A stretch of 64,000 bases of DNA, taken from UHGV virus genome UHGV-0139776, one strand, 5' to 3'. Of the stretch, positions 1,117 through 2,514 are shown one piece after another. The translations under genes and the position numbers were made by a program. The notes beneath the pieces are model-generated. The model saw only the letters and a list, made by a program, of their open reading frames with translations, made no database searches and was not told where the DNA came from. This DNA is from a virus. The first letter of the stretch is position 1; each line of letters opens with the position of its first letter.

Positions 1117-1228
1117 GTGTCCCCGTCTGTGTATTAGGGAACGGGGAGACACAACAGGTAAGGGCGCTGGTGTGATTAACCAGATGAACGAGAAGGGGCC
1201 ATCTGTTGGTCAGCGTCCTTTCCTGTTG
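1117..1228 (+). repeat. hairpin repeat unit 0 (two imperfect stem-loops, 1117-1150 and 1152-1228)
   Basis: arm CAACAGGTAAGG pairs with CCTTTCCTGTTG; same 5' arm motif recurs at 1591, 1805, 2291. Confidence 0.5.
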
Positions 1229-1433
1229 CGTTTTCTTTTCAGCGTAACAGCGGTGCTTAACAGCACTTTGGGTACAGTTCCACGAATTTACGGGTATATC
1301 CCGTCATGCTGAAAGCGCTAATCACGCTGGAAGCCAGGGTTATGCATCCCCTGTTACCGAATTGCAGCCAGGGCGCGGTGCGCCGAAAAGCATACGGAGG
1401 TGGAAGCCCTCGCCGGAGACGTGCCCGGCAAGT

Positions 1434-1509
1434 GATGGTGTAGCTCAGCGGTTAGAGCGGTTGACTGTTAATCAACGGGTCGATGGTTCAAATCCATCCA
1501 CCATCGCCA
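1434..1509 (+). tRNA. tRNA-Asn (anticodon GUU)
   Basis: 76-nt cloverleaf: acceptor GATGGTG/CACCATC, anticodon loop CTGTTAA, T-loop TTCAAAT, 3' CCA encoded. Confidence 0.9.
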
Positions 1510-1511
1510 AT

Positions 1512-1587
1512 GCCGGTTTAGCTCAGTTGGTAGAGCGCCTGCCTTGTAAGCAGGATGTCAGCGGTTCGAGTCCGTTAATCGGCACCA
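1512..1587 (+). tRNA. tRNA-Thr (anticodon UGU)
   Basis: 76-nt cloverleaf: acceptor GCCGGTT/AATCGGC, anticodon loop CTTGTAA, T-loop TTCGAGT, CCA encoded; 2 nt after tRNA-Asn. Confidence 0.9.
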
Positions 1588-1595
1588 GCACAACA

Positions 1596-1697
1596 GGTAA
1601 GGGTATTTTGCGACGTCGGAGATCGCCGAGCTTGGCAGAGGGTTCGAATCCCTACGAAGTACCCTTACCGTTGTGATGAATGCGCAGGCTGATGCGC
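1596..1697 (+). repeat. hairpin repeat unit 1 with conserved 3' tail
   Basis: 10-bp stem GGTAAGGGTA/TACCCTTACC enclosing a tRNA T-arm-like GGTTCGAATCC; tail TTGTGATGAATGCGCAGGCTGATGCGC. Confidence 0.5.
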
Positions 1698-1810
1698 GAA
1701 AGACATTGCAGCTATTGCGGAAAAGAGCTGTTCGGCGGGGCAATTAAACGCCCGTGAGAGTCTGAAATAACCGCAAGCCGGAGATCAGCACCGGTCATCA
1801 CAACACAACA

Positions 1811-1883
1811 GGTAAGGGCATTCTCCCTTATGGGGCTTGGCTTAAATGCATCGAGTGCTCTTACCGTTGTGATGAAGTGCAGC
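1811..1883 (+). repeat. hairpin repeat unit 2
   Basis: 13-bp stem GGTAAGGGCATTC/GAGTGCTCTTACC with two G-U pairs (compensatory relative to unit 4); partial tail TTGTGATGAAGTGCAGC. Confidence 0.5.
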
Positions 1884-2013
1884 TCTTTGAAGCAACCAGA
1901 AGATAAGCATCTGGCTTCACAACATAAACCGCAGGAACGACCAATAAACGGTAGTCCGTATGGAGAACACCCCGTTGAGGAAGAGGCCTGGCCGGAACCG
2001 TAACCGGCACTAC

Positions 2014-2129
2014 AACGTTGAGAACACTGGCGTAACGGGGTCATATCCCAATCTACGAATAAATGTTGCGTTGCAGCGTGACAACCAGTGTTCTCAACAT
2101 TGTGGTGAATGCACAGGCTGATGTGCCGC
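2014..2129 (+). repeat. hairpin repeat unit 3
   Basis: 17-bp stem AACGTTGAGAACACTGG/CCAGTGTTCTCAACATT; loop motif GGGGTCATATCCCAATCTAC shared with unit 4; tail TGTGGTGAATGCACAGGCTGATGTGC. Confidence 0.5.
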
Positions 2130-2293
2130 AACTACAGTAGTGCGCGCTTTGCGGGGCTTGCTACAACCCTGTGTCGGAGTTCAGCACCGACCATCACAGT
2201 TTGATTCTCTGGCATGAGCATAACGCTGAAATAAGTCCAGTCTGGTGCGGCCCGATCACCCGCCGTTAGCTCCACGAAACGGAGCACGTAACA

Positions 2294-2383
2294 GGTAAGA
2301 GCATTCTCCTGTAACGGGTTCATATCCCAATCTACAGGTCCACCAGGAATGCTCTTTCCGTTGCGGTGAATGCGGCTAAGCGC
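2294..2383 (+). repeat. hairpin repeat unit 4
   Basis: stem AAGAGCATTC/GAATGCTCTT; loop GGGTTCATATCCCAATCTAC; tail TTGCGGTGAATGCGG. Confidence 0.5.
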
Positions 2384-2514
2384 ACGCGGAACAGTTAAAA
2401 CAATCCTCCTTAATGGTTAAACATTCCGACGTTAATTGTTAACTGGTTAACGTCACCGGGAGGCACTCGGCACCGCAATCTAATAAATATGTCACTTTTA
2501 TTGAGGGATAACCA

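Follow-up and report, generated by a model that had tools for sequence, protein, structure and literature searches.

Hairpins and tRNA genes in the ban operon leader

We analysed a 64,000-nucleotide (nt) stretch of viral DNA, UHGV virus genome UHGV-0139776 (the window), and in particular an array of repeated hairpins that surrounds two tRNA genes near its start. The stretch belongs to a P1-like phage: window positions 1000-2520 are 97-99.9% identical to Escherichia phage P1 records, and matches to this region or to part of it are present in 1040 plasmid records. Annotation of the ban operon was carried over from the reference P1 genome, NC_005856 (L001, whose positions minus 501 give those of the window). 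By this transferred annotation, the five hairpins, U0 to U4, and the genes for tRNA-Asn and tRNA-Thr lie in one C1-repressed transcription unit, the ban operon, which is transcribed in the plus direction. The gene order is the end of dmt, Pban with the C1 operator Op72, a dicF-like region, tRNA-Asn, tRNA-Thr, the repeat region, tciA, tciB, tciC, a tRNA with a CAU anticodon, and ban. The elements are listed below; fold z-scores were taken against dinucleotide shuffles, and bit scores and E values of hairpins are those of the covariance model R1, which is described in the next section.

737-782, plus strand: Pban promoters and C1 operator Op72 (NC_005856 annotation), start of the ban operon, upstream of all other elements listed
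877-978, plus strand: dicF-like region (P1 annotation), closing with a strong intrinsic terminator
941-968, plus strand: DicF-like terminator, stem 941-960 followed by T8 (terminator scan)
1150-1230, plus strand: hairpin U0 (24.5 bits, E 6e-4; z -4.56)
1434-1509, plus strand: tRNA-Asn (ARAGORN; Rfam tRNA model, 74.5 bits)
1512-1587, plus strand: tRNA-Thr (ARAGORN; Rfam tRNA model, 72.9 bits)
1589-1675, plus strand: hairpin U1 (59.0 bits, E 1.5e-12; z -5.67)
1804-1871, plus strand: hairpin U2 (52.2 bits, E 7.5e-11; z -3.67)
2008-2107, plus strand: hairpin U3 (40.1 bits, E 7.7e-8; z -5.82; inverted repeat I1, 23 nt, 91%)
2287-2365, plus strand: hairpin U4 (59.9 bits, E 9e-13; z -4.60)
2515-2949, plus strand: tciA, TerB-family protein (open reading frame; PHROG 632 'tellurite resistance', E 1.9e-63; P1 annotation), the first protein-coding gene 3' of the hairpin array
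3224-3299, plus strand: CAU-anticodon tRNA (ARAGORN: tRNA-Met (CAU))

The hairpins occupy window positions 1150-2375 and have arm, loop and tail motifs in common far beyond chance. An earlier note, made from the sequence alone, had described five long imperfect stems of 10-17 base pairs (bp). All five were recovered by folding, with z-scores from -3.67 to -5.82, and the stems proved longer than described, reaching about 20-23 pairs with the conserved base CACAAC/GUUGUG included. Three inter-unit stretches were also folded: two were unremarkable (z -0.54 and +1.23), and the third, with z -1.88, is module A described below. The 5' arm motif CAACAGGTAAGRG, assigned by the note to U0, U1, U2 and U4, has exact plus-strand copies at 1152, 1591 and 1806 and a copy with a single mismatch at 2289. 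Allowing up to two mismatches, the 64-kb window holds eight matches against 1.7 expected, a number that none of 100 shuffles reached. The loop motif common to U3 and U4 was likewise recovered (96% identity over 25 nt; repeat family D8), and the 25-nt tail is present at 1673-1697 and 2102-2126 against none expected, its partial copies after U2 and U4 forming repeat family D3.

U1, U2 and U4 possess the same core, in which the base is followed by a bulged purine and two G-C pairs. At the third position of this core U4 has U-U; U1 and U2 have a U-A pair there, a variant present in a minority of the family to which the units belong. The base of U4 reads CGUAAC/GUUGCG, including a compensatory change from A-U to G-C, and its top carries the same motif as that of U3, AACGGGGUCAUAUCCCAAUC. 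U3 has a 1x1 internal loop in place of the bulge, then a G-C and a U-A pair. In U0 the core consists of the base and U-U with no bulge, the consensus bulged A being paired; U0 has no GUGAAU tail and is followed by a U-rich run.

Each unit contains two to five G-U pairs, and at positions of A-U and U-A pairs in U4 the stem of U2 has G-U and U-G, as the note had read from the sequence. Folding of all five units is 5.5-9.6 kcal/mol more stable for the plus strand than for the minus strand, and at the unit positions R1 scores are 5.6 to 39 bits lower on the minus strand. Because of this strand bias, the G-U pairs and the covariation of the stems across phages, the constraint on the units is at the level of plus-strand RNA, oriented with transcription, in agreement with the RNA-level constraint proposed earlier.

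This bears on the annotation of NC_005856, where plp and upl are placed over the repeats on the minus strand, and where the repeats would be incidental to protein coding. The window does contain minus-strand open reading frames (ORFs) of 139 and 63 amino acids here, and the shorter one matches the P1-type PHROG 14500. However, the 139-amino-acid ORF has no Pfam or PHROG match, and searches of the overlapping ORFs against both databases gave no functional match. The annotated plp overlaps tRNA-Thr, and P1-like phages differ here by indels that shift the frame; one of 196 bp, which is not a multiple of three, puts the minus-strand plp ORF into another frame. Other P1 records have no annotation here or have different plus-strand ORFs, and the covariation and the G-U pairs favour plus-strand RNA over minus-strand coding. 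We regard the two annotations as doubtful and minus-strand coding as quite an improbable explanation of the repeats; in the reference P1, a plus-strand RNA would take the place of two doubtful proteins.

The earlier note had also suggested that the units may be degenerate tRNA genes or tRNA-derived elements. U1 begins 2 nt past the CCA end of tRNA-Thr, and its T-arm-like sequence, AGGGTTCGAATCCCT, is indeed canonical. Relatives carry extra tRNA genes at this locus (tRNA-Tyr in the P1-like phage L005 and tRNA-Ser in phage D6), and ARAGORN, at 80% of its threshold, called a 95-nt 'tRNA-Tyr(gta)' at 1569-1663 that uses the U1 T-arm. This call, however, overlaps the 3' end of the real tRNA-Thr, appears at the lowest setting alone and is probably spurious. 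Within the units, ARAGORN found nothing at default or when relaxed down to 85% of threshold, and the Rfam tRNA model found nothing in any of them at E<=10. A canonical T-arm, with a 5-bp stem and the loop UUCRANY, is present in U1 alone (AGGGUUCGAAUCCCU); the tops of U3 and U4 have GGG-UCAUAU-CCC instead, and the U4 loop motif is deleted in L005. The conserved base, the bulge and the G-C pairs have no tRNA counterpart. Most family members, including those of lambda, Qin and Rac, are not beside tRNAs: a tRNA of any kind was found in 15 of 131 fetched loci, and hairpins directly after a tRNA were seen solely in P1-like phages. The tRNA-derived reading is largely refuted by these results and must be considered extremely unlikely.

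Phage T4 produces two structured non-tRNA RNAs, species 1 and 2, that are co-transcribed with the phage tRNAs and released by processing. The P1 stems differ from these in that no 3' CCA follows them and in that their family is found mostly away from tRNAs. Other Rfam candidates were rejected. The single match to YrlA, a bacterial Y RNA (RF02553), scored 25.6 bits against a gathering score of 69 and spans the real tRNAs (1454-1571), while matches to transfer-messenger RNA and microRNAs are artefacts of the real tRNAs or of hairpin shape.

The LH hairpin family

The units U0-U4 belong to a conserved hairpin family, LH, located in the untranslated leaders of enterobacterial temperate-phage operons that are controlled by repressors or antiterminators. 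Viral contigs were scanned for the pattern CACAAC-N40-70-GTTGTGRTGAAT, which returned 120 loci. An inner stem of 11-17 pairs was present in 90 of 124 pattern matches, as compared with five of 121 control matches in unrelated genomes, three of the five being in Kosakonia, Serratia and Pantoea. Thirty-six distinct non-P1 viral hairpins were aligned (A1), and R1 was built from this alignment. A second, mixed test-set alignment made with MAFFT (A2) misaligned hairpins of the U0 and U3 types and was excluded from the pair counts.

In A1, 95.6% of the cells are paired, as compared with 34-65% in slid registers. Changes on both sides of a pair affect 11 of the 13 upper-stem pairs; they amount to 82 cells, versus 26 in shuffles, and none of 500 shuffles reached the observed values. 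Stem pairing is conserved in related genomes, with heavy covariation, as expected from the constraint that the earlier note had put forward. Of the 36 sequences, 27 have G-C as the first upper pair and 24 as the second; the position after them is unpaired in 24, being mostly U-U by eye. Where a bulged nucleotide is present it is A in 58 of 64 cases. The LH design comprises a 6-bp base (6-9 bp in most members), one bulge, two G-C pairs, a frequent mismatch, about ten covarying pairs, one of which is frequently U-G, and a hypervariable top; the covarying upper stem measures about 13 bp. Since the search pattern fixed the base, its invariance within A1 is uninformative; variation of the base is seen in the copies of P1, Qin and Rac, and the change in U4 is compensatory.

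When applied to the 64-kb window, R1 found all five units (24.5-59.9 bits) and nothing else above E 0.4. The element matches no Rfam family. One conserved RNA element joins P1, lambda, Qin, Rac and many Shiga toxin (Stx)-type and other temperate phages. Lambdoid phages (mEp460 and Stx phages) carry window 1669-1805 as stretches that are 96-99% identical, with one match at about 90%. In mEp460 the common stretch lies a few hundred bases 3' of the repressor gene, in what we take to be the PL leader, between long hairpins of other stem sequence.

Additional P1-like and phage-plasmid loci vary in their hairpins and tRNAs. The unannotated phage-plasmid CMS-2020a (L008) has, at 2199-3653, at least five long hairpins of LH design adjoining a tRNA, with little sequence similarity to the P1 region; three score 26-51 bits with R1 and the other two come from the fold scan alone. 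In phage D6 (L006), the stretch 2550-2759 holds the extra tRNA-Ser, directly followed by an LH hairpin (36.9 bits), and a second hairpin, at 3878-3939 (46.1 bits), lies about 275 nt upstream of orf6. The extra tRNA-Tyr of L005 stands between tRNA-Asn and tRNA-Thr; the tRNA content of the locus varies among P1-like phages.

The presence of the same modules in P1-like, lambdoid and other phage-plasmid genomes raises the alternative of a DNA-level role, in which the repeats are recombination 'boundary' sequences through which cassettes are shuffled among phages. End points of a deletion in the reference P1 and of a chimera in Salmonella phage SJ46 do lie inside repeated hairpin or top sequences. 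Recombination is nevertheless an expected side effect of any repeat, and it does not account for the compensatory stem changes, the strand-specific G-U pairs, the mismatch and bulge or the orientation with transcription. It accounts for the mosaicism of the region and not for the covariation, and as the role of the repeats we find it improbable.

In 58 of the 90 stem-bearing members, TTTT is found within 12 nt upstream, which places them just past a terminator. Together with the U-rich run after U0 and with the location of members in antitermination-controlled operons, such as the late operon of lambda, this could indicate that the hairpins are terminators or attenuators, or cis-acting antitermination RNAs like the put sequences of phage HK022. 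The terminator scan, however, found no terminator at any unit: its sole plus-strand match in the non-coding leader is the DicF-like terminator, the other plus-strand match being inside tciA. U1-U4 have no U-tracts, and the U-run of U0 starts 2 nt past a weak stem base. The put paradigm itself, HK022, has no R1 match in its whole genome and was also negative in a motif scan; an identity of LH with the put antiterminator was rejected on these grounds. We know of no N- or Q-type system acting on ban in P1. A role in termination or antitermination appears very unlikely.

Structured modules downstream of the hairpins

The copies of the 25-nt tail pointed out in the earlier note were confirmed, but the tail is not an appendage of the hairpins. 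It is the 5' end of a separate structured module of about 60-140 nt, and hairpins and modules alternate in the array:

1670-1812, plus strand: module A, from the fold; 96-99% identical in lambdoid and Stx phages (one match about 90%)
1866-1923, plus strand: module B, a short form, GUUGUGAUGAAG ... CCAGAAGAUAAGCAUCUGG CUUCACAAC; repeat family D4
2099-2200, plus strand: module C, UGUGGUG ... CGGAGUUCAGCACCG ... CAUCACA; repeats D3 and D4
2360-2477, plus strand: module D, an STnc100-type leader directly upstream of tciA; Rfam RF02076

Module A is closed by pairing of GUUGUGAUGA (1670-1679) with UCAUCACAAC (1795-1804) and contains a 5' inner hairpin, GCGCAGGCUGAUGCGC, and a 3' one, CCGGAGAUCAGCACCGG. 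Short modules of the B type were also found in the viral loci L061, L110, L119 and L076, and a homologue of module C in L070. Module D matches STnc100 (RF02076) with 42.0 bits (E 4.7e-7), below the gathering score (47). The match covers positions 31-147 of the 206 in the model; the alignment, 2362-2477, begins exactly at the U4 tail. It is homologous to the kilR leader in Rac-SA53 and similar by eye to the dicB leader of Qin. Modules A-C were not reported by the Rfam scan. The earlier note did not mention that the hairpins have homologues in Qin, Rac and lambda, or that an STnc100-like module begins with the tail.

In all four modules GUUGUG(R)UGA pairs with a downstream YCAYCACAAC, and a CCGG-type hairpin precedes the latter. 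A complement to GUUGUGRUGA, with up to two mismatches, was found downstream of 48 of 76 viral hairpins versus upstream of 11 of 74, and in most of the viral-locus folds listed the downstream complement forms a closing helix with the same architecture as in module A. GUUGUG has two mutually exclusive partners, the upstream CACAAC, which forms the hairpin base, and the downstream CACAAC, which closes the module. Such three-way complementarity may explain why the hexamers are so conserved.

The outer architecture of modules A-C, with a closing helix, a 5' hairpin and a 3' CCGG hairpin, is the same as that of STnc100, to which PasD is related, and like the P1 modules, STnc100, PasD, KilS and DicF are all located in temperate-phage operon leaders. 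In contrast, the match of module D is without the 3' part of the STnc100 model (positions 148-206), and STnc100 has been described as a small RNA (sRNA) with no mention of a preceding hairpin.

Proposed RNase III processing of the ban-operon transcript

The E. coli K-12 prophage Qin offers a member of the family for which processing has been described. R1 matched L129 2170-2266 (25.9 bits), about 120 nt upstream of dicF. A 190-nt DicF species requires RNase III, as it is absent in the mutant, and its 5' end lies between +813/+814 of the dicBp transcript (bioRxiv 10.1101/2023.04.14.536235). We placed dicBp by sequence (-35 TTGACC at 1403-1408 and -10 TAATCT at 1426-1431 of L129), with a predicted start at about 1438/1439. 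Counting from this predicted start puts +813/+814 at L129 2250-2252, and counting 190 nt back from the U-run of the terminator gives 2251/2252. The RNase III cut in Qin would accordingly fall between CCG and GUUGUGG, where the variable stem meets the conserved base on the 3' arm, opposite the bulged G. A 5'-arm cut with the usual 2-nt stagger would be two pairs higher, so that the two G-C pairs would stand between the cuts. The LH core agrees with published rules for in-vivo RNase III substrates, which have about 22 bp and two paired, G-C rich positions between the cuts, with 3-nt overhangs associated with bulges (PMC6212723).

The Qin and P1 loci have in common the base, the bulged purine, the two G-C pairs, the orientation and a repressor-controlled leader with a DicF-type sRNA and an STnc100-like leader. 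Qin differs in having a single copy and no tRNAs, and in that the pre-DicF region follows the hairpin instead of a GUGAAU module. The Qin literature describes the position of cleavage, not a conserved hairpin family. The dicF-dicB interval, whose STnc100-like leader has a closing helix of 15 bp, is also among the listed RNase III sites (PMC5371410 Table S1).

In Rac, also of E. coli K-12, the hairpin is located on the minus strand at L251 1070-974 (R1, 29.9 bits). Position 1418510, which had 41 reads in an RNase III mutant and about none in the wild type (PMC5371410 Table S1), falls inside it. KilS (b4833), in the minus-strand stretch L251 906-1070, is the Rac counterpart of DicF, an Hfq-associated sRNA that was detected on Northern blots and in RIL-seq. 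The annotated 5' end of KilS falls within the Rac LH hairpin, 8 nt from the listed RNase III-dependent position; KilS may therefore be a processing product and not the product of its own promoter.

Lambda carries the best member outside the training set (L252 44783-44872, R1 64.1 bits), directly 3' of tR', the terminator of 6S RNA. It forms the longest helix between PR' and gene S, in the late leader, overlaps the 'orf-64' annotation (44621-44815) and has no Rfam match. Over GGTAAGAGCATT its 5' arm matches that of U4 exactly and, as in P1, it stands in an untranslated leader just past a terminator; unlike in P1, it is a single copy in a late operon. A 1988 paper (Daniels et al., Virology 167:568; reference 49 in PMC7547250) concerns, by its title, sites at which RNase III processes the Q-mediated late transcript of lambda; these sites may correspond to the LH hairpin.

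From these members we propose that the LH hairpins of P1 are RNase III processing signals, each with a variable top, that divide the ban-operon transcript; on balance this is probably the right explanation. Once C1 repression is lifted, the Pban transcript would pass the DicF-like terminator, and RNase III would cut at U0-U4, flanking the two G-C pairs of a double-stranded RNA of about 22 bp. By analogy with Qin, the cuts are predicted at the following sites:

U1: near 1597/1598 and 1669/1670
U2: near 1812/1813 and 1865/1866
U3: near 2018/2019 and 2098/2099
U4: near 2295/2296 and 2359/2360

The expected products would be a precursor of tRNA-Asn and tRNA-Thr with a 3' trailer of about 10 nt, GCACAACAGG; the excised hairpin tops, of about 50-80 nt; modules A-C, in the class of about 60-140 nt, with paired ends; and a tciABC-trnI-ban mRNA that begins with the STnc100-like module D as its 5' leader. 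With each cut GUUGUG(R)UGA would become available for pairing with the downstream YCAYCACAAC and could close the next module, giving it base-paired ends. The earlier suggestion of processed RNAs co-transcribed with the tRNAs stands as far as the single C1-controlled unit is concerned. The release of discrete RNAs would depend on the proposed RNase III cutting, and as such cutting would free discrete small RNAs, this part of the suggestion is reasonable.

Imperfect hairpins that are repeated and have an irregular helix at the cut site are also known from the RNase III sites of the T7 early region (R0.3-R1.3) and from the processing stems of rRNA operons. Both split a polycistronic transcript, which includes tRNAs in rRNA operons, into discrete RNAs, and the T7 sites separate mRNAs. 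The P1 hairpins differ from both in their large variable tops and in their alternation with structured non-coding modules; to our knowledge, they have no sequence homology to either.

Several points weigh against RNase III processing as the role of the P1 array. Literature searches for P1 transcriptomes found none. At only 6-9 bp, the helix below the predicted cut falls short of one half of a 22-bp substrate. RNase III does not require the strong sequence conservation of CACAAC/GUUGUGGUGAAU, which may be due to another binding partner or to the alternative pairing. The placement of the Qin cut is our own arithmetic, from a predicted start site and a length estimated on a gel; the Rac position is a low-count entry in a long list and gives weaker support; and the lambda evidence is the title of the 1988 paper, whose sites would have to coincide with the LH hairpin. 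U0 and U3 deviate from the consensus core. Individual units are also dispensable, as seen in the reference P1, SJ46 and L005. The reference P1 is without 196 bp, from the U1 tail to U2; here (L001 2086-2186, compared with window 1585-1881) a single hairpin has the stem and top of U1 and a U2-type tail, and is thus a U1/U2 recombinant. SJ46 (L007 2812-2902) has a chimera of the 5' arm of U3 and the 3' arm of U4, joined through the top motif common to both; its arms cannot pair, and this copy is therefore probably inactive. In L005, the U4 hairpin is without the GGGUUCAUAUCCC loop motif.

An overlapping explanation, compatible with processing, is that the tops and the STnc100-like modules are themselves the functional products, stable regulatory or decoy RNAs that possibly bind Hfq or another protein, and that the stems package and release them. 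Several unrelated stems carry the top motif AACGGGnnUCAUAwCCCAAUC, and its short closing helix varies in sequence between them, which suggests a functional RNA motif; sites are at window 2036-2056 and 2315-2335, at L010 10129 and L003 3225, and in L114, L061 and L238. Two tops, those of U1 and of L008 3266-3366 (AGAGUUCGACUCUCU), have canonical T-arms, the architecture of the modules is conserved across viral loci, and the relatives STnc100 and PasD are detected sRNAs, as is KilS (by Northern blot and RIL-seq). On the other hand, the tops are hypervariable within the family, close relatives have deleted or recombined versions of them, STnc100 has no established function, and no target or seed region was identified for the tops or modules. 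We consider functional products of this kind a tentative but real possibility.

In a more speculative and rather unlikely extension, the hairpin-plus-module cassettes would be an unrecognised, widespread class of phage 'cargo' RNAs with the RNase III cut as trigger. The cut would free GUUGUG for the partner swap and would release a top with the UCAUA motif or a true T-arm. The P1 RNAs, made early in lytic growth together with the tRNAs, would then be tRNA-like or protein-binding decoys or regulators and not spacers. If so, the released RNAs might counter, for example, host defences that target tRNAs.

RNase III hairpins in polycistronic phage leaders are already known, and the RNase III site that precedes DicF in the Qin dicBF operon was reportedly described by Faubladier and colleagues in 1990. 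We found no description of these sites as one conserved family from lambda to P1, of the five-copy array of P1 interleaved with STnc100-like modules next to tRNAs, or of the common core design with variable cargo. Processing at LH hairpins provides cut predictions at nucleotide level for the P1 array and predicts how phage tRNAs and the prophage sRNAs DicF, KilS and STnc100 could be excised from long operon transcripts. The variable tops and the GUUGUG partner swap open new questions in phage RNA biology.

Further observations concern other parts of the ban operon. Window 823-917 is 78% identical to the stretch directly upstream of DicF in Qin, and window 800-968 consists of a structured region and then a candidate sRNA that ends in the strong terminator (stem 941-960 and T8). 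The terminator-adjacent sequence, in the place that DicF occupies in Qin, has no similarity between the P1 window and Qin, and P1 may produce a DicF-type sRNA of its own from Pban. The tRNA gene at 3224-3299, tRNA-Met according to ARAGORN, is treated in the P1 annotation as tRNA-Ile2, which decodes Ile after lysidine modification. The non-coding interval between this tRNA and ban (3301-3485) is 79% identical over 186 nt to an mEp460 leader located downstream of the repressor gene (L003 2752-2929), and constitutes another leader module common to P1 and lambdoid phages.

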